From an uncultured Planctomycetales bacterium (GTDB taxonomy: Bacteria; Omnitrophota; Gorgyraeia; Gygaellales; Profunditerraquicolaceae): a stretch of DNA of 64,000 nucleotides. The translations under genes were made by a program, and so were the position numbers. The DNA is taken from assembly GCA_964354795.1 (NCBI GenBank), contig CAYHBB010000040.1:76593-140592 (forward strand). The letters are read 5' to 3'. This document shows, piece by piece, positions 18,001-57,000 of this stretch (positions are counted from its first letter, which is position 1; every line of letters begins with the position of its first letter). The notes under the pieces were generated by a model. The model was not told the origin of the DNA, searched no databases, and worked only from the letters and a program-made list of their open reading frames with translations.

Positions 18001-21000
18001 CATAAGGATCTTAAAAACAAAGTTACCCTGCCTGTAAACGCGCCGGTGCGTGCCTCGAGCTACATAATCATCTTGTGCCTGCTGGCCATTCACAACGTCT
18101 CTGTGGTCGCGGTCGTCCATAAAAGCTGCTATCGTCTCTATTACAATCTGCCGTATTAATCGCAAAGACCAATTGCGAATCTCATGACTATTGACCTGCA
18201 TCGCCTCTTGTAATTCCTGAACTGTCTTAGGGCCCTTTCCGAAGCCTCTATGCGGACCAAATAAGCACAAGCCGCCCGGCCTTCTATAGGTAAAAACATC
18301 GACATAATCTGGATAATCTCTTAGGTTTTCCATCGAAAGAGGGCGCGGACCCAACAAAGACATTTCGCCTTTGATAATATTTACCACTTGAGGCAATTCA
18401 TCAAACAGGTTCTTCCGAAGGAACCATCCCAATGGTGTATGTCTTCTCTCTTCTGGTATGTTTGTATGAGTGAGGGTTCTAAATTTATAGATTCTAAAAG
18501 GGCGGCCTTTATATCCTATACGTTCCTCAGTATAAAAAACGGGGCCCTTCGATGTGAGTTTTATTAACGGTGCGATAATAATCGTTGCAATACAAAGAAC
18601 CGGCAACAACGATATCCCAACAATCATATCCATAGCCCTTAACCGCTTTACCCACCGCCGATAAGGAGTCTTCTCGTGTTCCTCGGTGCTTATTTTCCAA
18701 TTAAAACCAGAGTGCCCGGAGTTCGTTATTTGGCCAGCCGCGCTGATTCCATCGCTGTCGTTGCGGAGGTCTTCGCGGAGGGCATCTCTTGGGCCAATGT
18801 AGAACTTCCAAAGGATATATTCATCGGTCTCAACCAGAGAAAATCCTGCCTTCTTTAAGCATTTCTCTGTTTTGGCAACTTCTTCCGGGTCGCGATAAAA
18901 CTCTCTCTCATCTCTGCCGAAATAAACCGTAATTGCCCCGAGAGGACCCTTTATCAGATCGCTGTTTACACAGATGGCCATAATCAACACTAAGGCCTCT
19001 ATTCCGTAATCATGGTCCCTAAAATTAACCTTACTGAAAGGACCGCCGTGTATTGCATACCTGAACCATCTTTCCTGGGGCGGGTCAACAGGGCAGTCTA
19101 TAATCCCATGCCCTATGGCACAGGATTGGTCTGACCGTAGCGATATCAGAAAAACGTGTTGCTGTGGTAGTGCCTCTAAAGAGAATTTTCCATCCTCGCC
19201 GATCCGTTTTAAGACCCTGAAGAACGTGATTTCTATGTTTTTAAATCTGAAAACCTGGCAACTATTCTGGTCGAGGCTTTGCGGAAACATTACCCTGCCG
19301 ATTCCCGCAGGACAATTATAATCAGCCATACCTTTTATAAGCAGTTTGACGCGGCGGGCGGTTTCCTCAGCCGCCGAAATTTGTTCTTTTTCAAAACGAA
19401 CGCTTCGGATATACTCTTGACTCAACGGAATGGCATGATGGGGCACGGATGGGGAAGCGGGGACGTTTCCCCCTATTGTAACAGCTTTATTCTCATTGGG
19501 TTGCGAAGGCGAATTAAGAATTTGCTTATCGGAAGGCTGGATTGTTGCGGCTAATAGCGGGACGGCGGAAAGCGCAGCAAACGGCCCTGCGGTGGCGGGA
19601 TGACTCAGTAAACCAATAATAGCCGCCAGCACGCCCAGAGCCAAGAGGCCAACAAATAGTGTGATTAAGTTCTGGCTGGATGACCGACAGGGACTGTCCC
19701 CGCTTTTTGGGGACTGTCCCTGAATTTGTTTCCCTAAATCCTTGCGCTGCAACGTGCCCAAAGAGGGGGAAACGTCCCCTCTAATACACTCCCATTCCCC
19801 CTGTTCGAATTTGACTTTAACCGGCTCTCCCCTTACCCCGGATCTGTATACTGCTGACATTAACTTAATACCAATGCTGTGATCGGCAAGCGAGGATCTG
19901 ACTATTGCCTGCGTCAAATCTTTGCTTTCTGCCAGCACGGACAAGAACTCTTTCGCTGGCAAACTATCGTCTTCCGGCTCTACCGGCATAACCTCGATAC
20001 TCTTAGCGCTTCCTGTGACTACCGGGTTAGTTAAGAATAGAAGTTCGGCATGGCTGTCTCCTCCGATAGCTGCTTTATCCGAAATCCCGAATTTAGCGAT
20101 TCTTCTATACTGCACTGCTGCAACCGGGCCCTGATGAAGACTTAACAACTCATATTTGACCCTGAAACGGTCTTTTGAGATTATGGTTACCCCTTCATGG
20201 AGAAACTTTATACTAACCTGACATCTTTTTTCATCTCCATGTTTAAATGTGATAAGAATGTTTGCGTTGATTTCCGAAAGCCCTCTCAAGTTTTCTATAA
20301 CTCCCGGATCGATTTCGGAAAGCAGCTTTATTTGGCCGTCCCTGTGCCGGAAAACCGGAAAGGTAGTAAATGAATCCATCGGACGCCACAAATCAGCGTA
20401 AACTACCGCGCTATCAATATCCTTCGGATTAGTATGGCGGATCAACCACGGGATAATATCAAGGAAATGGTAGCCTGAATGCGAAATCTTGCCTCCGGCA
20501 GACTTATACGCCCATTGATTGCTTCCGTAAGACCCAAGACTCGCTTCATGCTCGTCTTTTGCAAATATCCAGTAACCGTCATTTGTCTCGTAATTAATGC
20601 TTGTAATCGGCACGGTTATCCCGTCGATACGGTTCGCAGAAATTCTTGCGGCTATTTTATTGAATACATCGGAGTATCTTTTCTGTGTAGCCGCCATAAA
20701 AAGCAACCCGGGCTTACTCTTGGCTATTCGCATCAGCTCTTCATAATCAGCAAATATCTGGCTAGCCCCGGCTTCGTCAATGCTGCAGCCTGATGGAGTA
20801 GTCAGAGGTTTATCCACAAGGACATGGTAACCAGCATTCAGCGCCCAGGAAACGTAGGCTTTATGCGAGACTGGATGAGTTGAAACAATCACTGCTATTC
20901 TTTCATAATCCTTTAATTTATCCTTCAGGCTTTCCTGTGTATCAAAGAACCGTTTGACTTCTTCCTCTGCAGGAACCCTTTTTCTCCATTCGTCGGGGAC

Positions 21001-24000
21001 ATATCGCTCTATCTCAGGCTGCTTTAAGCCCATACGTTGATAATATCTCTTGAGCTCCTCTTCATGCCCGCTATAAACTACTTCCTCCGCATCTCTACCC
21101 CTTGTGCCATTTTCTATTCTAAAATCAACAACAGCCAATAAGTGGCATTTTTCCCGATAACCCTCTAACGCGCGTAAATGAGCACTTAAAGCATACCTAC
21201 CGGCACCAATCAATATCACCCCAACTTTATGTTGTGGCAAGGAACAGCCGATAGAACCTTGCACTGAAGCCTCCCTGAAGGGAAGCGTGCCATCTTTATC
21301 TGCCTCATAAATATAATGCGTGTTATCGCTTATCGATGCTCTGATAGTAAAACTGGGGGGCGTTTCGGGGTTTTTGGGCTGGATGATCGCGCCGATGAGT
21401 GCCAGAGGCAGTACAATCGCAGCTGCCGGCGGCGCATGAATTAATCCTGCGATTAAAACCGGCACTAAAATATAAACGAGCACCACCAGCCCAAGAAGCG
21501 CGATCAGGCCTTGGCCGGAAGTAGGCTTCTTGTTAGGTTGAGGACTGACCAGGAAGGCCTTATAGAGCAGGGCGATCTCTTCGGCAGTGGCTTTTTCTTT
21601 CAATTTAAAATCCTTTATTGCTGCCTGAATAAGGTCAGAGGCAAAGAGGGTTTGCTCTTCTAGAGGCACCTGTTTCGCACAGGCGGCCTTTGGCTCTCTT
21701 TTAAGATAAGGCACCACTACGCCTAAGATATTATCTCGTTTATGTTTCTTCAAGCTAGGGATAAGGCAACCGAAATTACTTACTTTGGTAATGAAAAGAA
21801 GTGTATCGCAGGCAGTAAAAACCGGTGATTTCTCGGAAATGAAAGCGCTCTTGTACAGGCGGGCCCTCCAGTAGCGCGGAGATCCCGTGATAAGGTTATT
21901 CTTTGCGTGCCATTCGCGGAAAACCCTGCTGAAGACAGCCTCGTCATTAGCGTATCCTTTAACTTTATTCATATGCACATCATTGAGAAAATTCTGATAA
22001 GCCCTCATAAAACGCGAAACCAGCAAAGAATCTTCGGTTATAGAAATGATCAAATCTAATTGCCCTACTGCTCTAGCTGCCTTTTTCTCTGTAGTGGCGG
22101 CAGCAATCAATATGGAGGCGCGCTTAATCGCGTTAGTAAGGCCTGTAAATTCGACTTCTCTGAAGAACGGCCAGCGCAGTAATCTCTCCAACTCTGCTTT
22201 TGCGTTTTCCCGCCCTCCCCCTTGGAACAGTGACTTAATATCTTTCGCCCTGTCGATCACCCTGTTAAAACGCCTTTCTCCACACTGGCGCAGTTCAAGA
22301 CGCAATGATTCAAGATTTGAAAACATACCTTCTATGGCATGCAGGCGAAGCCCGATAAAAGGCAATGCTGCGCTCAGGCTTTCCGCCGCCAGCTTGAAAT
22401 ATCCTTTCTCAAGCAACTGCGCTGCAGTCTCCAGATCACTACGGCACTCTTTCTTAGATTCTACCTTTACGCCCTTAAGCTCATCGGCGAGAAAAGCGAT
22501 TTCCCTTACCAACTCCATAGCAGTATCCCTGGCTCCGGGATAATTGACAAGCTCTGATGATTTCCTTGAAATATCTTCAATCCTGTAAGAGAAATCTTTC
22601 ATCTTCCGGTAATCGCGGGCCAAAGAAGCAAAGATCTTATCCAGTATCCTGTGCCAGCGGTAAAGCGTAAATGTCTGCGGGCGCTGCCTGACCAAAGTCG
22701 TTCCCTCTTCGCTGAGAAGCCTGCCCATCAATATGGTGAATTTTCCGTTCTTTTTTCCTTCTTTTTCTTCGACAATCTTCTCTTTTACTTCCTGACAGTT
22801 TGCGCGTATGCGCTCATCCAGAATTTCTTTTCTTTGCTCTGCGGTTTTTCTGGATAAAGCGCTTAAGATCGCGCAGGCTGCCGGCTCATTGCCTTTTTCG
22901 ATCAGGCCCACTATTTCATCCGCTCTCTCTATACCGCTGTTTCGGATAACAATTTTAAGCTGGGCAATATTTCTCGCCACCTCTTCAGCTCCCGCCCTAC
23001 GCGTTCCTAAGCGTAAAGTGCGATGGTGCAGATCCTTGATTCTTTGGTGTCCGGCTTTTAACCTGGCCTCATGCCCATCTAAAGTCATGCCTAAAAATCC
23101 GCAGCAAGCAATGGCCCCGATTATAAACACTGGCTTAGCCAGTAAAATAGCGGTAACCCCTATCAGAATGAAGATTAATGGCAAATATTTGAACAATGAA
23201 ATAAAGTTATACAAACTGGAGTCCAGAGAAAGGCAGGCTTGTTTAAGAAAATTATATTGCTCTCCTATATCTTTTGCGCTAGCCACATCCGTTTCGGTGC
23301 AATTCCAAGTACTACCTTGATCAGGATGGCGGAAAGGAAAGTTAGTCTTTCCGTCAAAACCACTGACCAGCCTTATTGAGCCATCATTAAAAACCTTTGT
23401 CCCCGGATAAGGAATGGCTATATTATAGGACGCGCACGTGCCGAGTGCGCAAAGCATGATTAATAACGGCGGAGCACAAATAGCATGGCCCATGAACCCG
23501 GCAAGCCACAAAGGCAGGGTAACGGCGCATAAGAGAAATAGCCCCAGGGGCATAAGGTATTCGCTAAGAATGATGCCTGAAGCGGGATCACTGTTTTCGC
23601 TTCCTGCTCTTTCTTCGATTTTGTCGATGTTATCTTGGATCTCCTGCGCTGCCTCGCGCAATAGCTTTACGGCTTTTCCTAAAACAAATATATTCCTCTT
23701 ACGGTTTTCTCCAAGAAAAACACAGTTATAGAAATAACGCCCCAGGGTACTCCACAGGATAGGGTCGTTTATTGTGCCTTTATTTTCCGGCGGGTTTACG
23801 CGGCCCAGATATTTCTCCGCATTTAGCATTTCAAGAATGGCTAAATTCCCTGCAAGTTTTTTGCTTTCCTCAACAAATGTTTTCTTCGGCAAGATCAATT
23901 CTCCCTTGCCATCCTTGATGTTTTGCTCCAGTCCTCCCAGTAATACCGTCAGCGAGGAATTTAGATCGTGCTGGATCCAACTGTTAAAACCTATTGAAAA

Positions 24001-27000
24001 TACCATCTCCTGCCTGGATGTGTATGTTAATGAAGAATCTAAAAAAGTAACGAACTCCAATATTTCTTTAAAATATTGCACCCATTCTAAAGCGCTGACA
24101 AGGTGATCGTCTTTTGTTGTCAATGGCCTTTGCGGCCAGTCAATTTTCTCAGCCTGCTCTTCAAATATATTATAATGATCGTCATTCAGCTTTTCCCTTC
24201 GTTTTTTCAACTCCCCGAAGAACTGAGCCGTCATCTGCCGCACATACATGACTGAATCTGTCAACGCCGGGGCCAAAGGAGAATATTTCAGGGTTGCGCC
24301 TGCCAAATAGCCTATTACTTTCAAGAAAGCTTCTTTTTCAGAAATAAAATTGCCGATCATCTTATCCAGAAGATGAGCGTTCTCAAGGTCATTTTTGCTT
24401 ACAGCAATAAGCGACTGGTACGCGCGCATCACCCTGCCGAGCCTAGCCTGGTGATTCGATAATGCCTCGCGCTGCTGTGTGTCGATTTTATTTTCTTCTT
24501 TGGCGCGCAGAAAAAAATAATTGAACCAAGAAAGGTGATTAGGGAAGGCGTCGTTGAAATATAACTGTATCGCCTTAAATAAAAACTGCAGTGAATCTTC
24601 GGGTAAACCTTCCTTATTGTCTTCGGCCGCGCGCTCAAAAACAGTCTTTTTGTCATGGGTGGGTAAATTTCTTAGTATTTCAATAAATTCCGGACTATGG
24701 AATTCATCTTGCAGCTCTTTGGCCCCGATCCAGGAGTTTTCGTCATTTACCGCAGAAAGCGGGGTGGTTCCATCTGTAGACACATGGTAGATCTTTGTAT
24801 GAAAAGCGTCCTGCAAATCGTACAGTAAATTAAGTCTTGCGTCCTGTATATACAACGGCCCCAATTCCGTGTGCAGAAAATCCGAACGATATGCCGGGGC
24901 TTTCAAGACAATATCTCTTTTCGGCCAATTGCGGAATTCCCGGCAGAGAATAAAGGGCGTGCGCAAAGCGGTATCGATCAGTTTGTCTGCTGCCTGATCT
25001 TGGCCACGGCCCCTGAGATACTGATCAAAACAATTGCCTTTTAAGTCCTCCGCCGGGTCTGTTAAAGCAAACCTTTGCGCCTGATGCTTCAGCTGCCGGC
25101 AAATAACCTTGATCAAGACAAGCGCAAGAGAAGTTGCTCCCGCTGCCGCAGCAAAGACACTCAGGCTAGACATCGCTCCCACCCAGTCTTCAGGATCAGC
25201 TTTTACCTCTAATATAGGTAAGGCGCCTTCGGCTTTTCCCTGGATAGCGTGATACTGGTTCTCTGCAGGCTTAATAGCATAAATACCCTCTGCCGCAGCC
25301 TTAAGCTTAGCCTTTGAACCTAACACTCTTTGGACAACTGACAAGCGCAGAAGATTGTCTTTGATGCATTCACCTTGAGCATTCTTATTAAGAATCGATC
25401 TTAAGAATTTATTCCTTAGTTTGTATGAACTAAGGGCCATTGTCACGCAATTGAAGGAAGCCCGTAATTCATCTGTATCGTTTTCCGAGCCTTTACGGAC
25501 ATAGTAGTCGATTATGCCTTTCTCCAATGCCTCTTTTATTTGCGGCCTCTCCTCTAGGCCCCTTCCGCTTTGCAGGACAATATATGATTTGGAACCATTC
25601 TCTCTCATTGTGCGCGCAAAGGACAGTCCATCCATAAACTTCATCTCTAAATCAGTTATAATAATACCGAACTCTCCCTGGGCTTTGATAATCTCAAGCG
25701 CTTGCTTTGCGTCATTAGCGGTGATCGTCTCAGACAACCCGGAGCAAAAATAAAGCAGCCTTTTAAGTCCACTGAGTATGCTGGCTTCGTCATCTACTAA
25801 TAAAAGCCTTTTGTTCCCCGAAGAATTGATTACTGCACCTAAGCAAGCAAATACTCCAAGAAAAGCAAAAGACTTTAGAAAAGTGCTTAAGAACATGATA
25901 AGAGAAAACGCGGGGATAGAAATAAAGATGAAAGAAATAATAAACGGGCAAAGAATACCCAAAGCAACTAATATTTTAGTCAAAGCCTGCTTTCCGTTAT
26001 GCCCATTCATTTCATGAAGCGAGGAGATGATGCCGATAACCCTGCCTTTCTTATTAAGCACCTGCTGCTCAGTGATCCAAACGCTACGTACGCTTCCGTC
26101 GGCAAACTGATATTCCCGCTCAAAAGGCGGCAGAGTTTCCGGCTCTTTAAGCTTTTTAGCGACTACCGCGTGTACCTCCTCCTGGCACTTCGGCGCCACG
26201 AATTCCCAGACATAACGGCCGGCCATATCTTCGGCGCTATTTAATCCCAGGAACTTCACTTCAGCCTCGTTCACCCAGACAATCTCTCCATTCTCATTGA
26301 TCATGTGGGAAGGCACAGGTGAAGAGAGAAATTTAGCGTATTCTTCGGGACGATAAAGATTTTTAAGTTTGCGCACTGCTTCGCTCAGGAAACGCGGGGC
26401 GATATCCTCGACTGCGCCCTGATCGACGATTACCGTGGTATCGGCGTTCTCAAGAAGCATGCTCACCGGAGTCCCGCTTTCCATAAGCGCCTGTTTTAAT
26501 ATCTTTGCCTTGCGTTTACCGAGAGCAAGGAGAAAAACCTTCTTATCCGATTTTCCGCCTAAAACTATATCATACAAGCTCATCGTATTGGCGTAAGGGT
26601 TCACTTCGATACCGGGATAGTCCTCTCTGTTGGCGCGGATGATTTCCTCGGTAAGACGCACTTTTTTGAGCCTGCCCTGCTCTCTGATATCCAGATGCGA
26701 ACCTTGTGAGTTAAGGCCGATATGCCCATCCGAACCTACGCCTACAACAATAATATCCGCTCCCCCGAAATGCTCATTAAGCTCATTCATATAGGCTTTG
26801 GGATCAGGGCCGGCTCCGATATAATGAATATTTTTTCTTGATTCAGGCGTAGTGAAAACCAGCGAAAATAGTTCTTTCTCAAGCGTGTGCGCGTAGGAAT
26901 AAAGGCTGTCCACATCAAGGCCCTGGTATTCAGCTAACTGAAAAGCGTTCAATCCCTGCCAATAGATGCAGTATTCCTGGTCAGCAAGCGCCCGTAAGAA

Positions 27001-30000
27001 GCCCTTCCTTAATCCTCCGTTTGCGATATAGCTATTGACGGTCCTGCCGCCGGGAAAGATCACATTGACCAGCCCGCGCTCGGCCTGCACCCTGTTTATT
27101 TCGTTAGCGACAAGGCCCGCGGCAGTCCGGGCAAAATCACGCGAAGTCACGATATGGAAACCAAGATCCTTAAGTAGGCTAAGCGCCAACGGTAACTCAT
27201 TCTTACTGGCCGCAGTAAGCTCAAGAAGATAAGCAATGATCTGTTTTTTAAGCAGCGGGGATTCCTGGGCAAGACGCTTGATAATATCCTTCAGGACGAC
27301 AAAAAACGCCTCCTTATCGATCTGCCCCTGCTTCTTAGGCTTAAAAAGATCGTTCAAAACATTCCTGAATTGCTTCCATAAATCCGGTATCCTGCGGGGA
27401 TCTCTCAATGCCGCGAAAAGCACGGCTTCAAACATCCAGGCCGGCTCTGCTTCATCTGCCCCTAAGACGATCTTACCGTGTTCAGCCTTTACCAGGATGG
27501 AGATGAAGGCTTTGGCGCAGTCCGGAAGTTTTCCGGAATCTTTGATGACTTGATAAAAACGGTCAAAGCAAAATTTCTTATGCTTTACTATCAACTCGAC
27601 CATAGCCACAAGGCACGGTTCATACACGGTCCGGTCAGTCGAAGCAAAGATCTCCTCTAGTACCAGCTTTTTGGCGATGGCGCTGCGTAAGACAGACTGA
27701 CGGATTCCTTCACTTCCGATGCTAGGAGATATAATATTGCTGAGGATATCTGTTTTTAGGAGTAGCTTACGCTGCCTGACCAGGTGGCGCGTAAGGTTCA
27801 GCTTGTAATCACGGATGATACGATAGAAAAGATTATATATATTATCCGCCTCGTCTTCTTCCCCGTCTTCCACGCTATTTAATATATTTGTATTAGGGTC
27901 GAAATTCCGGTAAAAACGCAGTTCAGTGCCCAGATGTCCAACGAAAAGATAAACCAATAAAACCGAGACAGCTCCCAACGCCACGCGCTGCCAAGGCGCG
28001 CCCCCAAACAAGGCCAACATGAATACGGCCGTGATCAATCCGACCAAAACGCACTTGACGGTGATGATAGACGTCTCGGACCGCTTCTGAAGAAGGATGT
28101 CTCCATACTTGGCGACAGCAAAATTGAGAAGCGCAGAATCGTCATCAGGATCTTTCGCAACCTGATCTGCCAGCGCGATAAAATCATCATAGATTGCCCC
28201 ATCCTGACTTAACGCATGCCTCTTCAAATAAGCTTTAGCCCAGGCCTTTATTTCTTCCTGCTCGGAATCGCGTAACGCTTTCCAGGCCGAAACCTCTCTG
28301 CGGATAGCCGCCGCCTCTTCACTGATAGTGTGGTGTGCCTGTTCCTCATGGCACAGCAGCATATAAATAAGCATTGCGGGAACGGGGTGCTGGGGTGAGA
28401 ATAATTCTTCAGATAGGCTTACTGAACCATTCCTGCGCAGGGCTAACGCACCGCGGATCCTAGCCACATTTACCTTTGCGCCCTGCCGCCATAGCTCATG
28501 CACTTTAAATAAAAGCGCCTGATTATCACAGATCAAAGAGAGGAAATCCCTGATGTCTTCGCTATCGCCTTCGATCACAGGAACCGTATTCTTCAACCTT
28601 AAGAATGCAGCGGGAGAAAATAATTCAAGCTGTCGAGGAGCCTGCGGGGACGCAGGAATAAGCTGCCTTAAGGAGGCTTTGGTGGATTCGTAATATTCAG
28701 ATGGCGGCGCCCGGCCCCTGATCGACATCCATTGGATCAGGTCTTTTAGGATATTCCCTCTCTCATCAACCGGCCACACCGGAAGGTCTATCAGCCTCAT
28801 ATTGCTAAAATCGATCCTGGTAAAAAGCCTGTTCAGTCTTTTTTGCTGCTCTTTCTTAAAACAGTCTCCTCGTAATGCCCAAGCCAAAGGACCTTTGTTA
28901 GTCAAAAGATAATCTACCTGCGGACTGCCGTTTCTTAGAGCCGCTGCCTTAAGGTTATTTATCCATCTTTGCGTAGGCGCGATAAATCTCTCATGCGTCC
29001 TTGCCGCGTAATTCATAATATACCTTTCGACTTGATTGAGTCTACGCCGGGTCCTGAAAATCCTCATTTGAGTCCTATAATCATCGTCTTGCCCGTATCC
29101 GGCTACCAAGTTTGGATGGTTTTCTAAATATAGATAATGCTCCTTTATCCAATCCCTCATAGGAAGGCCGCAGATTGTATCATGCTCTAAATCGACTTCG
29201 ATATTATTCCTTCTTAGATCCTCGATACACCCGCAGAAAAGGCCTAAAGACAATACTGAAATAAAAGCTGAAGCCAAAGATAACCCTGAATGGCCTATGG
29301 CGACAGCGATAATCAAACTAAATCCAAAAAGAATAAGCGAAGTAAGAATGGGCGCGGCAGCGCGAAGAAATCTGTGCCTATAATGCAGCGAGGTATTACC
29401 GGAAGCAAACGAGGCTGCCTCAAGCTTTCTCAATAAAACTTCGGGTTTCAAATGCGTGCCATCGACCTTAAAGAGCCAAAAAAGCAGTATCTCCAGCTCT
29501 CTGTCAGCCAGGCCAGCTGCGCATATGACTCGCCGTAGCTCTCTCTTTAAATCTTCCGCAGACAAACCCCTTACCAGTATTTCTTTTTGCCTGAAGAGCT
29601 CTTTTCCCTGCAGGAATATCTTTCGTCTTCTCGCTAGCCCAGAATCTTTGCCTCCCAGGACGTCAAAAGTATCTATACCCAAGATCTGGGCAAGGACAGT
29701 GCCAAAACCAAACCAGTCTTTATGGACGCTGTTTTCGAGCCTGTCGCTCTTTGAGTGCGGGCCAAGATACGAAAAACCGGGAGTGAGTATTATTGATTTA
29801 TTTAGTACATTATCTTTCAATATGGCGCAGGAAAAGTCATATATGATCGGCCCATGGTGCGCAATAGCATCAGGATTTCTGGCTAAGGCAGCGGGTATCC
29901 AGATGTTCCTAGGGCCGAAATCTCGGTGAAGGATCCCCTGATCATGCACGTATTGCAGGCTCCTGGCAATCGAAAGCGCGAGGCGCTTTTTCTGGATTCC

Positions 30001-48000: not shown

Positions 48001-51000
48001 AGTGTCTTTTGCGTTCTCGGGGATCACAAAAATAGCATCTTTGCCAGATCTACGGTCCCGGATCCCGCCAAAAATCTCGAAATTAAGGACAGCTACAATC
48101 CGGGCGGGTAAATTTAGCGATAATGATCTAAAGACATCCGGGTCGCCTAAACGCAATCTATCTAAGCTTAGGTTCTCTTCATGGGTTATTGGGAATAACA
48201 CTGCCTGGATTTCGTGAGCGATGGTTTGAACTGAGGCATTTACAGGATGAACAATAAGCGGCTTTGTTCCGACAGGGGTATCCAAAAGCACAATGCAGGC
48301 ACCGATATCCCAGCCGTCAGGCGCACGGGCATAATGGATGCCGCGGGCCTGCTCCAGTTCGTCGAATCTGCTACGATTAATGCCAAAACGTTTTGCAAAC
48401 AAATTACGCGCATCCTCAAGAATATCGCTATCTTTGTATATCCCTGCGCGAATAGAATCAATGCCGAATTTATGCGCGTAAGCATCGACGAGCGCGGCAT
48501 CAAGGCCGTTTTCCGAGCGGTCAACAGGCCGCTGATCTATTACGCACTCATCGTTTACCCTTGCTGAGTAACTTTGAGAAAGGATCACACAGAGAGTGTT
48601 TTCGCTCCTATGGATCTTTATCTCGGAAAAGCGGGTTTGAATATCCTCCTGCTCTTCCAGAGGAACGGACAAGCTCCTGCGTATATTTAATATAGTGGTA
48701 TTGTCTTCCGCCCTTTCCCTATCAAGGTCATAAAGGAAATTTATGATATCGATCTTTTCTTTCATATCCGGATCTCGGCTGATATATTTCCACAATCCGT
48801 AAATGAACCTGAGCGCCACAACCATATTCCCGTCTTCGGCGAGCCACCGCAGATCCCATACGCCGCGGCGGATACTCACCCGGCTTAAGAAAGCGATGAA
48901 TTCACCATCGCTGAGGAACTTCACCACATCCTCAGGGAGATTCTTATGCCTGGCGATCTCAGATAAAGAACCCCGCCACTCCTCGCCGTCAAATGTGCCT
49001 AGATCAGCGGCCACCCCGCCTTGTCCTGTAAGCCCGGCAAAAAGCCTTATCTTTGCCCAGTTTTCTTTCATCCTTGAATATGTGGAGAACCGTCCGAGGC
49101 TGGAAAGAAAAACGATGCTGCGTATGTGCCCGGCGCTTACCGTATTTTTCGCCTTTGAGACGACCCATGTGGCGGAAACTATAGATGCCAGCTTTGTGAA
49201 TCTGTACCAGTTGGCAAGATACGCATTATCAAGACTAAGCTCCCATCGCTTCTCAGCTTTATTTTCACTCAGTGAAATATTTAACCCTCGTTCTTTCAGA
49301 TTACGCAGGATCTCTTCGAAGCGCATACGCTCATCTGTGAGCCTGTTTATTTCGTCAAACGATGTATTTCGGAATATTTCAGCTATCGGTTCGGAACTAA
49401 AAGGAGCCAACGCGGAAGGAGCACTAAATCTTATCCACTCGATCTCTCCTTCTTCCTTATTGCCTGCAAGGTGTTCTTCGGCCCTGGCCAAGACGCGGCT
49501 TAAAAGAAATATCATTTTGACCAGCGAATCCGGGTCAAGTGACTGCAAAAAGAATATGCAAGAATCAATCACCCTCACAGGCGTATGCTCGGGATTGTCA
49601 AAATATTTACGTATCAAAGCGAAACTATCCGGCTGCTTCTGTTTTATATCTTCCAGCAGCGCCTTCGCTTTCTCGTACTTAGCCGAAGATGGCGGAAGGC
49701 CTTCTCTTGTGGAAGAGAATATCTTTAACCTGTAATCAAGAAGCTGCCTGCCGAATTCTTCGGACAAATAATCTTTCGCATTTTTAGCGCCCATTAGCCC
49801 GCTAAAAAACTTTGTCTTGTCGCCAGAAAGCCCCATGCCCTTTCCTGAAGCATAGATATCAGCAAGATTAAGAAGAGACAGGACTTTTATTGCCAGGGAG
49901 TCCGGCTCGTAATTAAGGCTGTCCCGGGAAAGCACCCTATACGTCCTTTCGCCGAAATGTATGGTCCCCAGATCAACGTGATGAAATATTGCCCATGCCG
50001 CCAGTTTTATCTGTTCGTCGGAGAACCTATCCTCCTGAGGGAGAAAACCGTTTATCGCATTAATGATCCCCGAGACAATAGGAGCCCCTGCTTCTGCGTG
50101 ATGCGGACTCTTTGAGGGCTCTCCGATATCATGCAACAAAGCGATCAAATATACCAGCCTGCGCATTGTCAACGCATTGCCTGCGGCAAAGATCTCTTTA
50201 AGCGCGTCACGGAACATCCTAAAAGACGATTCGAAAACAAGATCCCCTTCTTTATCTTTGTTGATCGCGGCCAGATCATCATTCTCGCCTTTGTCCAGCG
50301 CGTTAATGAATACGGCCGCGCCTAAAGAATGCTCAAAGATATTCTGCTTAAAACTACCGCTCTGGAATTTTATCCCCTTCTTAAGCTCGATCATCTTCGG
50401 GAACAGTTTTTCTATTACTTCCCGATTTTGCGCAAATGCGACATCGCGGCTATCAAGCACTTGAATGAAAGCTGTCACGTCTTTTTCGTCCCATAAAACG
50501 CAAGCCTGCCCTTCTTTGCCCGGGGCAGGGCCCGGCTTTTGGCCGGCGGCCTTCGGATCTACAGGTTTTACGGCTGGCGCAGTGGGCTTAAGCCTTTTTT
50601 CTAATTCCGCCTTGAGCCTGCTAAAGTGCTGCTCCATATATATAGGAGAGCCTTCGCCAAAGAATAAAGTCCCGAAATCCCTGTGCAATGTAGTCAGGCC
50701 CATGATCGTCTGCATTTCATCTGATTTTATTCCGCGCTCTTTTCCGTAGACATCCGAACTCGATAGGGTTTTAAGAAAATGAGGCAGGAACTCCCAGTTA
50801 TCCAACGATTCATCCCGGTATAAAAGACGGGTGTAGAGAAGAAGTATGACAGAGACCCATAATATCTTCTTCATAGAAGGCTGGGAAATAATAGCCTTGT
50901 ACGTAACGATAAAACTTTCAACATCTTCTGCCAAAGGCGCGAGGCTTTCGGAAAGGCTGTATTTTCTAAGATACGAGGTCAGGTCTTCTATACGCAACGC

Positions 51001-54000
51001 CCCCCTTGCCACATTATCGATTTGATCAAGAAACCGGATAGAAGCGACGACTCTTTCATAGCGGTTCCTGACTCTTCCTTTCTCGTCTTTTGTCTCGGGG
51101 ACATCCTTGAGCTCATCCATAAAAAGCATTTCCTGCAGCCTTTGCCAAAGAAGCGAGATGCTCGGTTGCCGGATCTCAAATTCATCCCAGAGCCTGATAA
51201 AGTTCTCGCGCTCTACCTCTGTTATACTTGCGGTCGAACTTCTCAGGGCAACAAGCAACTTATCATCACGGACACTATTGCAAAGGATAGGATTGATTTC
51301 AAGAAGATACACTATCGCGTAAGAATAATTCCTGATAGCAAAAGTATATTTAAACTTATTTTCCGTTCCTGAGGAGAAGTAGGTGTCGCCCAGAGCCACG
51401 AACAGATCCGCGATCCTGCTGCGAATATCCTTTGGCCCGTATTCAAACCCCCCAAGGCATCCCAGGCGCCTCAGATATTCAACGGTTAAGGATACCTCCT
51501 TGCCTATCAAATTAGGCGTCTTGTCTATCGACATCCTCATGTCTGTGTATTCCCGCAGGAATGAAAGGTGGTCTCTGGCGATTCTAGAGGGCAATGTGGC
51601 CGTATTACTAAGAAGTGATTCCATCCTTTCATCACGAAAAATATACCGCATCTCGGAAATCAAAAGAAAGGCTTTGTGCACAAACTCATCACCATGATTA
51701 TCTTTAGACACCCCATTGCAATGCCGGCCTGATTTCTCCAGCCACAAAGCCAGGACCTGATGATAAATCTGCGATTCTATGATCAGCTCTTCCGCTTCGC
51801 TATAGTCGCCCTTATCTTTCCACAGGCAGCTATTCAGCAATAGCACTGCCTCACCCGCGCTTGCATCCGACCTGCAAGCGCTGAGAGCGGACGCATTTAC
51901 CTTAAACTCTAATCTCCATTTTGTTCCCGAAACGAAAAACTCTTTAACCAAGGGATTATTGCTAATGATCCTATCCAATATTTTCTTTATCGGAGCTGAC
52001 GCGATCTCGCTCATTGAGGCGTACGTCTTCGGCAAATCATCCCCAGACTGACCCTTAGGCAAAACCCTCCAGAAAGAATTATGCAAATTTCTTTCCACTT
52101 CTGCAGCGGGCCTTCCGTTTTCCGAATGGTCGGCTGCTGAAACGGCTGGAACAAGATATCTTGTATCGAGCGGCGGCTGGAATACCTGCGTATCAGCATC
52201 TTTCTGCGTGAAAGCCTGGAGAATCTCTTTTGCCCTGCTTTTTATCGAACTATAGAATTCCCCGCTAATAAACTGCGCATGCCGGGGATTCCTGTCTCCG
52301 TTATAATTTGCTAACCCTTCAGCGTAATCTACGCAGTCAGCCAGGTTTATCCCTCCGGCATACCCCTTATTCTTTGCCTCGGTACCGGAAGGCCTTATCT
52401 CGACCCATTTATCGCTGAAGGCCAAATAAGTACCATCGCCGACAAAAAGGATGTTCTCTAAGTTGCTAAAATTAAGCTCGCTAAACGCTTCCTGCAGAAT
52501 TGCCCGGGCGTCTTCAATGCCTATCATGCCAGCCCGCAACGCAAGGGTAATGCTTAAAAAATAAGTGTCATTTTTCGTCCTAATCCCTAGCCCCTCCCTT
52601 ATTTCGTCATCAAGCTTTTTCGAATCTTTCTCATTAGGATTATAATAGATAACGTCCGCTCGGTAATCAAACCTGGAAGTTATCCGGTTATCCTCATAGA
52701 TCTCTTCCAGATAATCGGAAAGCATTTTGTTGCGGCTTTCTGAGTATGCGGCGAGCGCTGCAGTGACAATCATGGCTTCTCCCGCAGACTTCTCTCTCAT
52801 AGCGATGGCGGACCTTCCATTGGTGCTCCTGATCAATTCCGCAGGCCCGAAGATCTCACCGCCGGATTCTTCGCCCGCAAAAAGCGCGCGCGGATTCTTT
52901 CCTATATTGATATTGTTTCCGTAAATATCGGTAATAATGACGTCCTCGCCTGGGCGCGTCCTGAGCTGAAATTCCGCCTTTCGCAATATCGAGGCAATTT
53001 CTTTGAAACCCACCGGAACCTCTACTACCGCAACCCCGTTCTTTTGCGCCCACTCAAGCCAGGTCCTGGAAGAAGGAGTGGTCTTTACCATAAACCAGTT
53101 GTATTTATTCCACAGGCCCGCATCTTCTAATGCTTTCTTTTGATAGGCAATAGTCAGCAAAAACGACTGGTTCGGCGTATATACAGCCAACACCCTGGAA
53201 TTGCCCATATCAATATATGCTATCCCTAAACGCTGCAAAGAAGCAATATTCTCGCTGGATTCGATTTGCGCGGTAACCAGCCTATCGCCGTCCGGGTCAG
53301 TCATCAACACCGTTGTTCCTACGGGGTAATCTTTGAGTAATTCGCTGTAGCCGGTCATTTGTACCACCGGCATGATCACCTGCTGTGTCTTTTTATCAAA
53401 TTTAGTCATCGCCAGATCGCACGACAAATCATAGAATTCGCGGTTTCCGTTCTTAGGGTTAGTATCAAGCTTGCCGACTCCGTGGAAGAAGGAATCTTCG
53501 GCAGTATGCAGCCACCTTATTTTATGGTCGATGCCCAGATGTCTGAATATTCCGGACATTGTCCGGTACATGCATCCGCCGACGCAATCGATGACTACGG
53601 GATCCCTCATCCCCTTTATCTTTTCGAGGTTTGCCGCAGTAGCAACGCCTCTTCTTAAATATTCGACGTAAAGCTGCATACCGTCTTCAAGCCGGGATAA
53701 TAGCCCGGTGTCGATCAGTGGATTATCTTTGGCCGCGATGGCGACCGTATAACTACCCTGCTCTTCGATTACCTTGAATATCCTCTCGATCTCCGCAACG
53801 AACTCCATGGATTCTTCGGGCAGGTACTGGCTGCCCTGATTATTTATGTCCTTGGTAGCGATAAAGGTGGCGATGGCGTGGCTGGCAGTTACGTATTCAG
53901 CGCCGATGAAATCAAGCATGAATGCCAGGAATGAGATCATCCAGATCGGCATGGTCTGATATCCTGCTACAGTATGTGTAGTTATGCCTTCATGCGCTTG

Positions 54001-57000
54001 TATTCTGGAAATCAATTCTACAAACGCGAGGGAATTATATCTTACTTCTGAAGCGGCTATCTTATGCAGTTCTACTGCGCTATATTTATTATTGGCGACC
54101 CTGGCCTTGGCCAAAGTAGCCAGGAGGATCGCGAAAAGATGCAAGGGGTATTGCGGGCGGGTGTCCTGCGGATAGACAATATTCTGGTTTCCGCGGATGC
54201 CGGCAGTAGATTTCTCCGCCTCATCCTTGTATTTCGTTAACCATCTTTTTAAGCCCAATCCTTCAGGATTATTCTTCTCATCAAAATCAGATAAATGCGC
54301 TTTGGTTAACGTAACCTTAAACTCACCGGGATTTGATAAATCTATCCGGGAATTATTCTTTACGTGCGCGGGAGTCCTCTCTTCTATGTCGAGCAACAAC
54401 TCCCGCTCTAAAGCGCGGGCCCTTTCATTATCAGAGCGGCCCGATACCACAACCATGCCCAACAGGCCAAGAAGGATAAATGATGTGGGATGAACCAATG
54501 CAGCTAAAGCAGCAATACTGAAGAAGAAAATAATGGGTAAGACAGAACGCAATACGAGAGCTGAAGGAGCATTAGTTTCAAGCCAGAATAAAACTCCGTT
54601 AGTAGAAACCGACAGGTCTTCATTAAAACGGTAGCTGTATACTTTGCCGGAGGTGTGCACTTGGATCGCGCGCGGTTTAGTAAGGCGTATATTTACGTTT
54701 ACAATATCGTTATCAGACAGGCCGAATCTTTCTTTGGCATCCTGCGTTACCAAGACTTTTAACCTTTCAATGCGCTTTTCATATTCCGTGATAAGACGGT
54801 CGATTGCAGCGTCATGTAATTTAGAAGTGACTCTGCCGGAGAATGTCGAATTATTATTTCCTTTAGCAGTCTCGTGCCAGACCGTTTCATATAAGCGCAT
54901 CCATGTTTTACTGAATCCAGCAGCCTTATTCGGCGCCGTATTCTTCAAGGCAAAGACCGCTGCTACTAAGAATAAGGCGACCGCCCCCATTACGATCAAT
55001 AGTTTATTGCTGATCTTCCCCGACGTTTTGGTTTGCCGGTTGTCAGCCGCCGAATCCCTGGCAAAAGAAACATCTCCCTTTTGATAAAGCATATAGGCGC
55101 CTTCGGTCAACTCATTATCTTTTAATTTCTCGGGCGAGGTATTGGTCTTAACCAGGCGCAAATAATCAAGGAAGCCCTTACTTGGCAAAGTCACATCCTG
55201 CATGTAAAGGTATCCGCCCTCTCTTGTGCAAGAAAAGATATTGCCGTAATACTTATCCGCGGATCCGTCCCTGGCGAGCTTCCCTCCCAGGCCGGGGAAT
55301 TTCACGATAGTAAGGTCGCTTGCTCCTTTTAAGAAATCAAGCGGCTGGGTGCAATCTTTACGATGGAAATGCACAGTGACTTTTCTCGCAAATAATCCGG
55401 ATCTATACCTAATCTCGACTTCTATTATATCTAGGGTAGGATATTTGTAGGTGAAAGAGTAATTGAAACTGTCGCCGGTGAAATTGGGGATATGGTTATG
55501 GAAGAACCCGGTAATAGTTTCCATTGAATACTGGTCTTCATTATCCACCAGATGCACATCTGTTACTGTCGGGATGTTCCTGATGATTTCATAAGGCAGG
55601 GAGTAGTCCCAGCCGCAGGCAAGATAAAGGATGGTTTTTACTTCGCCGTCCGGTATCAGCTTCCAGACAGCTTCCCGGGCGTTTGTTTTTTCCGGGCCTG
55701 CGCGGCTTTCCTTGCCGCGGCTCTCTGCAAATCTCCTGAACGCGCTAACAGCGCTGGCAATAATTCTGCGCAGGCCCCGGTAGAAATCTGCATCAAAGAG
55801 CATGCCAGGGAAAGAGTAGAGCTTTGAGGATAAGGGATTGCCTTCAGAAGGTAAAACAAACCTCAGGCGGACCTTTACATGCGCGCCTTCCTTTAATAAA
55901 GCGATGATTTCCTTTGGAGCTAAATTTTGCTGCCAGGCACCCTCCACTAAAGAAGCCTCTAACACCACCGCTTCTGTGTCTTTCAGGTAGCTGACCACGG
56001 AACTAAGCAAGGCTACTGTAGGATGGCTGAAATTTATGCTTGAGACCTTGCCTCTTAGTTCACCTATCATCCATTTAAAAACTCTGCTGCCCAGCCCCTG
56101 CCTCCTTGCTACCCGGCCGTATCCTATGGCCCTTCCAAAAATAAGAAGGTCAAAACTTGCTTCCCCTTCTTTGGCTCTGGGCAATACCAGGTCCAAATGC
56201 CCCATTTCCTTATAGTTTTCGGCTCTATTCTCCTGGCCCCTATTTGTATTAAGGTAAATATAATCAAAATAATGCGATGCGTTGCTGTCGGCAATGTCGG
56301 CCATATGCCTGTGGAGCTCAAGCTCCCCCTCTATTGAACAGACAATACTTATTTCCAGACCTCTGACATCTACCTTGGCCGGCCCCAGCTTAAACATAGC
56401 TATGTGCTCTTTTTTCCCGGATATTTTTCCCATCTTCTGATAAAGATTCCGCGCGTAGTGATGGGGAACATTTAATTTTTCTCTGAATGAAGATTTTTCG
56501 TCTTCCCAGACCAACATATTTATGACTTCAGGATATTGAGTCTCCAACCCCCTGTCGCTTACCATAATGCTGGCTAAAAGATATATTTCAAAACCTGAAT
56601 ACCTATCGGACCTGATCTTCTTGACCCAAATCTTTACTTTTAGCTCCGTTGACTCGGATAGATCATCGGAGAGAGGCAAGCTGCTGATAATACCCACATA
56701 GTCGTAATGAAGGGCGCAGTTGCAGCTACATTGATTGCCGTTGCCACCGAGGCTATCTTCGATAGCCAGGTCCATTAATATGCTGACGATCAGCTCTTTC
56801 CTTTCAGGGCCGCTATGCGTGAAGAATCTGGCTATTTGCCGGCCTTTATCAAAGACAAAATTGCCCATCCAGGCTTTCAGCCAATTCTTAACTATATCTT
56901 TCTCGATCTCCTTGCCCGCGCCTTTTAAATATCCGATCAATTCTTCATTGCCCATGATCCTTTCATTGCCCATTTTTATCGCTTCAAATTTATCGCGCAG

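Follow-up and report, generated by a model that had tools for sequence, protein, structure and literature searches.

A 64-kb internal piece of a giant coding sequence with embedded sugar-related modules, probably from a multi-enzyme membrane protein of the Omnitrophota type

Results

A single uninterrupted coding sequence

The stretch of DNA considered here, 64,000 nucleotides of contig CAYHBB010000040.1 (the window; all coordinates below refer to it), is occupied by a giant open reading frame (ORF) and contains no further genes. Frame 1 of the minus strand runs through 21,333 codons without a stop and is open at both ends of the window; the remaining five frames contain 623–1565 stops. The region 18150–54150, where the initial annotation had placed a glycan-assembly toolkit fused into one chain, corresponds to residues ~3284–15284 of the visible chain.

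1..64000, minus strand: internal part of the giant ORF, first full codon at 63999-63997

In slices of 3 kb, the GC content of the first, second, and third codon positions (GC1, GC2, GC3) is ~0.52, ~0.38, and ~0.51, respectively. GC1 exceeds GC2 and the first codon position is purine-rich (59–67% purine) in 21 out of 21 slices, and in each slice the ORF frame has no stops, compared to 45–91 in each of the two other minus-strand frames. The ratio of nonsynonymous to synonymous substitution rates (dN/dS) is 0.37 for an internal duplication of 227 aa and 0.33 for a module common to the chain and a database relative (both described below). Taken together, one frame without stops, a uniform coding signature, and dN/dS well below 1 identify a real, selected coding sequence longer than 64 kb. 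Thus, the window is an internal piece of a single coding sequence under purifying selection, and the proposed fusion of the modules into one chain holds.

The Shine–Dalgarno core is present upstream of none of the 393 in-frame ATGs of the giant ORF, which speaks against internal translation starts. No tRNAs or Rfam families were found in the window, its only tandem repeat is trivial, and the plus-strand (antisense) ORFs of 157–310 aa have no family matches.

Module composition of the chain

The chain was scanned with Pfam in overlapping pieces of 1000 residues, at E ≤ 0.001 and then at E ≤ 1, and excised modules were scanned against NCBIfam and PDB sequences. About 28 module types were recognised, mostly complete and of the stand-alone type; they belong to many Pfam families, none of which dominates, and about half of the residues have no match to any family. 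From the N- to the C-terminus, the order is as follows: cytidine/dCMP-deaminase-like, GalE, RmlB-like, GalE-like, Peptidase M50, phosphohexomutase, HD, GT-B-like, and orphan segments; then Glu/Leu-dehydrogenase-like, Sigma70 region 4, transglutaminase core, and Upf1-like AAA_11/AAA_12 helicase; then protein-kinase-like, NagB-like, PAS, receiver, Gfo-like, phosphoglycosyl transferase (PGT), YrbL-like kinase fold, and TPR; and finally P-loop, YihX-like HAD, receiver, S-adenosylmethionine-dependent methyltransferase, uroporphyrinogen decarboxylase, CheB methylesterase, receiver, and LysM. Receiver domains number four in total.

Approximately one third of the ~28 modules handle sugars (two of the GalE type, RmlB-like, phosphohexomutase, NagB-like, Gfo-like, YihX-like, a weak GT-B, and the PglC-type PGT); the remaining two thirds, approximately, are signalling, nucleic-acid, protease, or unrelated metabolic modules. 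In the region 18150–54150, about five out of 14 recognised modules are sugar-related, and they are interleaved with the others in no pathway order; when 8,350 residues of this region were compared with PDB sequences, no further modules emerged. The window yielded no nucleoside diphosphate (NDP)-sugar pyrophosphorylase, flippase (Wzx), polymerase (Wzy), or ABC exporter, nor is any elongating glycosyltransferase supported.

Phosphoglycosyl transferase

18118..18639, minus strand: monotopic PGT module, PglC/WbaP catalytic domain (Pfam Bac_transf)
18475-18489, minus strand: YKFRT motif of the PGT (motif search)
18388-18402, minus strand: DELPQ motif, the Asp–Glu dyad of the PGT (motif search)
18340-18360, minus strand: SLLGPRP motif of the PGT (motif search)

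The PglC-type transferase that the initial annotation had placed at ~18.4 kb is firmly supported. It matches Bac_transf (PF02397) with 125.4 bits (threshold 27) over profile positions 2–178 out of 179, and the NCBIfam model EPS_sugtrans with 141 bits; among PDB sequences, it scores 75 bits with WbaP and 59 bits with PglC. The KFRT, DELPQ, and SLLGPRP motifs are intact, as is the re-entrant helix with its Pro kink, MIVGISLLPVLCIATIIIAPLI, the Pro break lying in MIVGISLLPVLC... The module may be able to load sugar-1-phosphate from an NDP-sugar onto polyprenyl phosphate.

The Pro-kinked re-entrant helix, KFRT, DELPQ, and GPRP are shared with the monotopic PGTs (PglC and the catalytic domain of WbaP/WcaJ). 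Unlike these enzymes, the module is part of a giant chain, with ~15,000 residues ahead of it and with hairpin linkers (see below) and the YrbL-like kinase fold as its neighbours, and, in contrast to WbaP, it has no N-terminal transmembrane (TM) bundle. A protein search with the PGT-containing chunk yielded one weak domain match, and a scan of GTDB genomes yielded domain-level matches only, at 39–40% identity. All monotopic PGTs known so far have their active site on the cytoplasmic side of the membrane.

Other sugar-related modules

52378..54048, minus strand: alpha-D-phosphohexomutase module (Pfam PGM_PMM, NCBIfam, motifs)
53878-53889, minus strand: TASH, phosphoserine loop, aa 3371 (motif)
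53281-53298, minus strand: DPDGDR, metal loop, aa 3568 (motif)
52858-52875, minus strand: GEESGG, sugar loop, aa 3709 (motif)
52378-52395, minus strand: RPSGTE, phosphate loop, aa 3869 (motif)
26407..27147, minus strand: NagB/glucosamine-6-phosphate-deaminase-like module (Pfam Glucosamine_iso)
26716-26733, minus strand: SDGHIG motif of the NagB-like module (motif)
19699..21333, minus strand: inter-hairpin module with a Gfo/Idh/MocA-type Rossmann segment at 20794-20937 (Pfam)
49936..50334, minus strand: HD metal-dependent phosphohydrolase module (Pfam HD)
50122-50139, minus strand: LLHDIG motif of the HD module (motif)
10675..11241, minus strand: HAD phosphatase, glucose-1-phosphatase (YihX)-like (NCBIfam NF006991, 106 bits)
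2917..3069, minus strand: LysM, between two single TM helices (Pfam)
62383-63390, minus strand: GalE (NCBIfam, 281 bits)
61105-62115, minus strand: dTDP-glucose-4,6-dehydratase-like, RmlB-like (NCBIfam, 351 bits)
59938-60969, minus strand: second, GalE-like module (NCBIfam, 252 bits)
43285..44547, minus strand: claimed GT9-like module, an orphan alpha/beta segment with no supported family
45961..46848, minus strand: possible GT-B C-terminal domain, alpha-glucan phosphorylase/GT1-like, weak (Pfam, NCBIfam)

The phosphohexomutase proposed at 52.15–54.15 kb was recovered, though its Pfam domains are individually weak: PGM_PMM_III scores 32.2 bits, above its cut-off of 20.7, PGM_PMM_I and II score 21.6 and 21.2 bits against cut-offs of 22.5 and 29.3, respectively, and domain IV was not reported. 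The NCBIfam model Arch_GlmM matches with 48.5 bits (E 6e-13), far below its equivalog cut-off, and a phmmer search of PDB gave no match. All four signature loops are present in order, the phosphoserine loop being TASHAI, not TASHNP. The NagB-like module expected at 26.45–27.25 kb matches Glucosamine_iso (PF01182) with 38.1 bits (threshold 27), TIGR00502 nagB with 68.7 bits over profile positions 8–245 out of 259, and Bacillus subtilis NagB (PDB 2bkv) with E 2.4e-14, GVGSDGHIGLN being aligned with GIGRNGHIGFN. The suggested HD phosphatase is narrowly above its threshold (24.3 bits, cut-off 22).

Other assignments stood in part. The Gfo/Idh/MocA module at 20.7–21.35 kb exceeds the Pfam cut-off (PF01408, 33.6 bits against 24) and has GAGRYA and VDKP motifs, but the match covers only part of the Rossmann domain (profile positions 51–98 out of 120); NCBIfam oxidoreductase and IolG matches are weak, and no C-terminal alpha/beta domain was recognised by the family models. 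One of the two postulated HAD phosphatases was found, outside the region 18150–54150 (Pfam Hydrolase 25 bits; motif I FDIGNV, plus LSDTN and FDD), but no second one was detected in the chain by Pfam at E ≤ 1 and by motif search. LysM (PF01476) likewise lies outside that region; its score is borderline (21.0 bits, cut-off 20.9), the sequence pattern is typical, and a Pro-rich stretch follows. Upstream of the region, the block GalE, RmlB-like, GalE-like (59938–63390) of short-chain dehydrogenases/reductases (SDRs) has intact GxxGxxG and YxxxK motifs and Pfam Epimerase and GDP_Man_Dehyd matches; a search with this block yielded no giant relatives, its matches being common two- and three-domain fusions with identities of 44% or less.

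The GT9 heptosyltransferase (PF01075) claimed at 43.35–44.5 kb was not supported. The segment has no Pfam match even at E ≤ 1, no homologue among 5.8 billion proteins (word index), no PDB sequence match, and a probability of 6% in the hhalign comparison with the Escherichia coli WaaF/WaaC/WaaQ/WaaU profile. Its motif resemblance is in register with GT9 but statistically indistinguishable from chance, and the fold is not readable from the single-sequence AlphaFold2 model (predicted local distance difference test, pLDDT, 36.5). The nearby GT-B-like domain matches Pfam Phosphorylase with E 6.7e-4, Glycos_transf_1 with E 0.13, and NCBIfam more_P_ylases with 29 bits (E 4.6e-7); its single-sequence AlphaFold2 model is not usable (pLDDT 36). 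A HIT hydrolase had been proposed as well; HxHxH is absent from the whole chain, and there is no Pfam match to this family. In all, seven of the proposed modules hold; GT9, the second HAD, and HIT do not.

Hairpin linkers

21334..21540, minus strand: hairpin linker (alignment and self-comparison)
19495-19698, minus strand: hairpin copy
17212-17412, minus strand: hairpin copy
16192-16374, minus strand: hairpin copy
15307-15516, minus strand: hairpin copy
14581-14784, minus strand: hairpin copy
11254-11466, minus strand: hairpin copy
9841-10050, minus strand: hairpin copy
9157-9366, minus strand: hairpin copy
8125-8313, minus strand: hairpin copy
5050-5277, minus strand: hairpin copy
3040-3219, minus strand: hairpin half copy
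44557-44697 and ~54439-54546, minus strand: weaker hairpin copies

A hydropathy scan combined with self-comparison revealed a recurrent element of ~65 residues, consisting of two hydrophobic helices and a short His-Ala/Pro turn, with the consensus SGQ(S/G)LIALLGLVALGAL..IAGLIH(A/P)P..LGA. At least 12 clear copies lie between soluble modules at residues 14154–20331, and weaker ones near residues 6435 and 3157. By a hydropathy heuristic only, uncharged hydrophobic stretches number ~48 along the chain, and the conserved hairpins account for at least 12 of them. The linkers are rich in the helix breakers Gly and Pro.

Between copies, the proportion of synonymous differences (pS) is 0.3–0.7, near saturation, and that of nonsynonymous differences (pN) is 0.09–0.28; thus, the copies are old and the peptide itself is constrained. 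The near saturation of synonymous sites also rules out the hairpins as junctions or scars of recent recombination.

A half hairpin lies just before LysM (window 2917–3219), retaining SGQ and the first helix and lacking the second. Such an arrangement would be expected if a pair of helices returned the chain to the side from which it came, a lone helix leading it across the membrane; LysM between single helices would fit an extracytoplasmic loop. A topology model for the whole chain based on the parity of TM helices was abandoned, since it places two 82%-identical copies of one module on opposite sides of the membrane, which means that some helices were mis-called.

Embedded protease

58189..58560, minus strand: Peptidase M50, intramembrane metalloprotease of the site-2-protease (S2P) type (Pfam, 72.5 bits)

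The M50 module has intact HEFGH and NLLPVFPTDGG motifs, which make it a candidate for intramembrane self-processing of the chain.

Relatives of the chain

The chain itself did not turn up in the databases searched, and for most of it no close relatives were detected; the PGT chunk and the SDR block gave only ordinary domain-level matches. When 1.84 billion representatives were searched exhaustively with HMMER for the hairpin profile, only two proteins were retrieved. The first, MCX5705733.1 (P0002), is annotated as coming from a Candidatus Omnitrophota metagenome-assembled genome; no literature on this accession was found. It has three hairpins and is 63–71% identical to aa 20008–20286 of the window chain (~80% over the module core); the common module occupies 3175–3732 in the window (aa ~20090–20274) and 1443–2198 in the P0002 locus, L003. 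P0002 ends with HEAT repeats and is cut by the contig end, and is thus a C-terminal stump of a longer gene. Downstream of it lie two PilZ genes, a sugar ABC importer, a major facilitator superfamily (MFS) transporter, and a gene of glycoside hydrolase family 2 (GH2). The modules flanking the common module differ between the chain and P0002, which suggests that hairpin-bounded cassettes have been shuffled.

The second protein, P0003, is a complete metagenome protein of 2,578 aa with two hairpins and almost no Pfam matches; hence, the linker is not confined to proteins longer than 10,000 amino acids (10 kAA).

88-7824 of contig Ga0438316_0011919 (JGI 3300045146, locus L005): P0003, with an AT-rich upstream region

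Two scans of JGI metagenomes, with the conserved C-terminal module and with the hairpin motifs, respectively, found no relatives.

Discussion

Comparison with known giant proteins

ORFs of up to 85,804 aa have been described in Omnitrophota, with many TM regions and GT5/GT1, TPR, HEAT, and PGM/PMM domains (West-Roberts et al. 2023, bioRxiv 10.1101/2023.11.21.568195). In that study, most domains were predicted to be extracellular and a role in cell-wall degradation was favoured; PilZ genes were observed immediately downstream of most giant genes, with sugar-import systems nearby; and proteolytic processing was speculated on, cleavage by C39 and S8 domains being proposed. A survey of 916 proteins of at least 10 kAA has defined a class of "multi-enzyme metabolic cluster" and Pfam co-occurrence communities, one on sugar metabolism (starch synthase, GT1, PGM/PMM, receiver) and another on methyltransferase, HAD, and HD domains (Nielsen & Lui 2026, bioRxiv 10.64898/2026.06.07.730766). 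According to the same survey, ~2% of residues are TM, 46% of the proteins are classed as "TM-only", which is taken to mean membrane anchoring with the domains in the cytoplasm, 80% of the giants are singletons at 30% identity, and one 147-kAA protein was revised to an outside-facing topology.

The window chain shares with the "multi-enzyme metabolic cluster" giants a single ORF above 10 kAA tiled by many Pfam families with none dominating, the same communities (PGM/PMM, GT-type, receiver, HAD, HD, methyltransferase, NUDIX), TM helices every few hundred residues, and sequence uniqueness. Similarly, it has the TM regions, GT, TPR, and PGM/PMM domains of the "Archaeovorin" giants and of the 39,678-aa protein of Velamenicoccus archaeovorus LiM. 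The HEAT repeats and the downstream PilZ genes and sugar importers of this type are matched only in the relative P0002 and its locus, and no SecA_DEAD, C39, or S8 was seen in the 64-kb piece, although they may lie outside the window. In contrast to the extracellular cell-wall degradation proposed for "Archaeovorin", the modules found here suggest a cytoplasmic location and a biosynthetic or regulatory role. The frame is uninterrupted over at least 21,333 codons, compared to the at least 10,000 that delimit an Omnitrophota giant membrane protein. The chain fits on every feature tested, its taxonomy being supported only indirectly, and it very probably belongs to the TM-rich multi-enzyme giant-protein class of Candidatus Omnitrophota ("Archaeovorin"/"multi-enzyme metabolic cluster").

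Viral and eukaryotic polyproteins and the megasynthases of polyketide (PKS) and nonribosomal peptide (NRPS) synthesis also carry many catalytic units in one frame. However, the chain has neither the carrier-protein and condensation logic nor the collinear pathway order of PKS/NRPS, its modules are membrane-tethered enzymes of housekeeping type, and its processing is only hypothesised.

The initial annotation regarded such an assembly as undescribed; TM-rich Omnitrophota giants with GT, PGM/PMM, HAD, HD, receiver, and methyltransferase domains are already present in both preprints. Thus, the chain opens no new category and joins a class that is described but mechanistically unsolved. The new details, which the main texts of these preprints do not mention, are the conserved hairpin linker, the embedded PGT (Bac_transf), and the embedded M50.

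Interpretation

Considering all these data, the best overall explanation, to which we assign a probability of about 0.7, is that the window is an internal stretch of an Omnitrophota-type giant multi-enzyme protein, in which the sugar modules are one sub-community of a general-purpose scaffold. A mechanism of a tethered cytoplasmic array has slightly better than even odds. The hairpins would enter and leave the cytoplasmic membrane, or be inserted in only one of its leaflets, thereby anchoring the chain and holding cofactor-dependent modules (NAD-dependent SDRs, mutase, receivers, helicase, and the PGT active site) side by side on the cytoplasmic face, and single helices would flip short loops, e.g., LysM, outside. 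The cytoplasmic orientation of the neighbours of the PGT is supported by the cytoplasmic active site of the monotopic family. The sugar modules (hexose-phosphate mutase, glucose-1-phosphate phosphatase, glucosamine-6-phosphate deaminase, two 4-epimerases, and 4,6-dehydratase) could then form a membrane-proximal pool interconverting hexose phosphates and NDP-sugars next to the PGT, which would prime a polyprenyl-linked glycan. Regulation of the pool or the PGT could plausibly come from the receiver, PAS, and kinase modules within the chain; a precedent is the activation of an initiating PGT by a separate receiver protein (PMC12802240). The sugar modules would thus be a functional sub-community of the scaffold rather than a full assembly line for glycans or one devoted to them exclusively.

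Several points weigh against this explanation. The topology is tentative: the helix-parity count is self-contradictory, and published topology predictors disagree or are unreliable for such giant proteins. Both the persistence of an intact chain and the activity of its modules are assumed. The Omnitrophota placement is indirect, depending on one partial relative in a window with no marker genes, and neither the two metagenome scans nor one genome scan gave a closer relative. Finally, the absent pathway steps could hide in the half of the chain that matches no family, or beyond the window.

The most probable of the alternatives, though an unlikely one, is a polyprotein precursor cut at or near the hairpins, by its own M50 or by the transglutaminase-like cysteine protease, into membrane-tethered or soluble enzymes. 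The intact S2P-type M50 (HEFGH, PTDGG), the Transglut_core module, the Gly/Pro-rich linkers conserved at the protein level, and the resemblance of the modules to complete stand-alone enzymes agree with such processing, as does the proposal of C39/S8 cleavage for such giants (West-Roberts et al. 2023). Given the lack of internal starts with a Shine–Dalgarno core, separate products would require proteolysis. On the other hand, both the cleavage and a conserved scissile motif are hypothetical, S2P enzymes normally require a prior site-1 cut, and plain anchoring explains the hairpins equally well. A more specific version, in which the SGQ-hairpins are processing or insertion units of a bacterial membrane "polyprotein" cut by the chain's own M50 within the Gly/Pro-rich helices, is improbable. 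If true, it would mean that one giant gene supplies the membrane with enzymes of housekeeping type at a fixed stoichiometry, including much of the NDP-sugar metabolism of the cell and a glycan-initiating PGT, possibly the organism's only copies.

A dedicated assembly line, in which a single membrane-anchored polypeptide produces activated sugars and constructs an envelope glycan from them, as the initial annotation had envisaged, is also rather unlikely. What stands of that proposal is the fusion of sugar enzymes and a PGT in a TM-rich chain: the PGT has intact catalytic motifs and is accompanied by the phosphohexomutase, two GalE-type epimerases, the RmlB-like and NagB-like modules, the HAD resembling glucose-1-phosphatase, the weak GT-B, and LysM. 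Monotopic PGTs fused to further enzymes of their pathways have reportedly been described by O'Toole, Imperiali and Allen in PNAS in 2021. However, the majority of modules are not glycan-related and are interleaved in no pathway order, no nucleotidyltransferase, Wzx/Wzy, ABC exporter, or supported elongating glycosyltransferase was detected, and GT9 is negative in every sequence test; hence, "glycan toolkit" is a selective description.

Still less probable is an extracellular or periplasmic predation effector, whose modules are displayed outside and bind and process cell-wall sugars of the prey. Such a role would agree with the presence of LysM, with the GH2, sugar ABC importer, MFS, and PilZ genes at the locus of the relative, with the mostly extracellular domains predicted by West-Roberts et al. 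(10.1101/2023.11.21.568195), and with the outside-facing revision of the 147-kAA protein (10.64898/2026.06.07.730766). Yet the modules need cytoplasmic substrates and cofactors (NAD+ for SDRs, ATP for helicase and kinases, phospho-donors for receivers), the PGT active site faces the cytoplasm in its family, and the linker helices are paired; the N-terminus of the chain, with any signal peptide, lies beyond the window. As for an artefact or dead sequence (mis-assembly, chimeric contig, or non-translated remnant), for which only the scarcity of close relatives in very large databases speaks, the 21,333 codons without stops, the uniform codon-position signature, dN/dS of ~0.35, the intact catalytic motifs in many modules, and the Omnitrophota relative with the common module and linkers make it negligible.

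Giant bacterial genes are a recognised puzzle as regards the integrity of the product, the membrane side of the modules, and the function. In the present chain, cleavage sites would most naturally be sought in the linker, which is constrained at the protein level and also lends itself to topology mapping. The intramembrane protease, intact within the same chain, provides a handle on the cleavage question, and the PGT, the orientation of whose active site has been established structurally, may act as a topological marker inside the chain. Should the sugar enzymes turn out to be the only copies in the genome, core metabolism would be encoded inside a giant gene.

Other modules and internal repeats

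40264-40911, minus strand: ELFV (Glu/Leu) dehydrogenase, partial (Pfam)
38875-39024, minus strand: Sigma70_r4 (Pfam)
38104-38346, minus strand: Transglut_core (Pfam)
32122-33615, minus strand: Upf1-like superfamily 1 (SF1) helicase, AAA_11/AAA_12 (Pfam, 125 and 104 bits)
29680-30078, minus strand: Pkinase-like (Pfam)
26011-26325, minus strand: PAS (Pfam)
25492-25803, minus strand: Response_reg (Pfam)
7084-7794, minus strand: uroporphyrinogen decarboxylase, URO-D (131 bits)

The helicase and sigma-70 region 4 are nucleic-acid-handling domains, which is odd inside a membrane-studded chain. The non-sugar modules of housekeeping type (URO-D and the partial Glu/Leu dehydrogenase) raise the question whether separate copies are present in the genome.

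15484-16164 and 12685-13365, minus strand: duplicated unannotated module of 227 aa (aa 15946-16172 and 16879-17105)
57883-57948 and 44908-44973, minus strand: two copies of a 22-residue peptide (aa 2018-2039 and 6343-6364)
37300-37902 and 30550-31152, minus strand: second kind of TM-containing linker or module (aa 8700-8900 and 10950-11150)

The copies of the 227-aa module, 82% identical in amino acids and 87% in nucleotides, represent the most recent duplication seen. The 22-residue peptide KTCHAPLQRIEKG(N/D)LLPSVAG occurs twice, just after M50 and just before a hairpin linker, ~4,300 residues apart and with 91% identity; it could be a docking or processing motif. In the second kind of linker, the copies of which are ~30% identical, the pattern ...NN(S/P)xAMG..LP.AVI... 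precedes a strongly hydrophobic helix, after which comes a charged, coiled segment.

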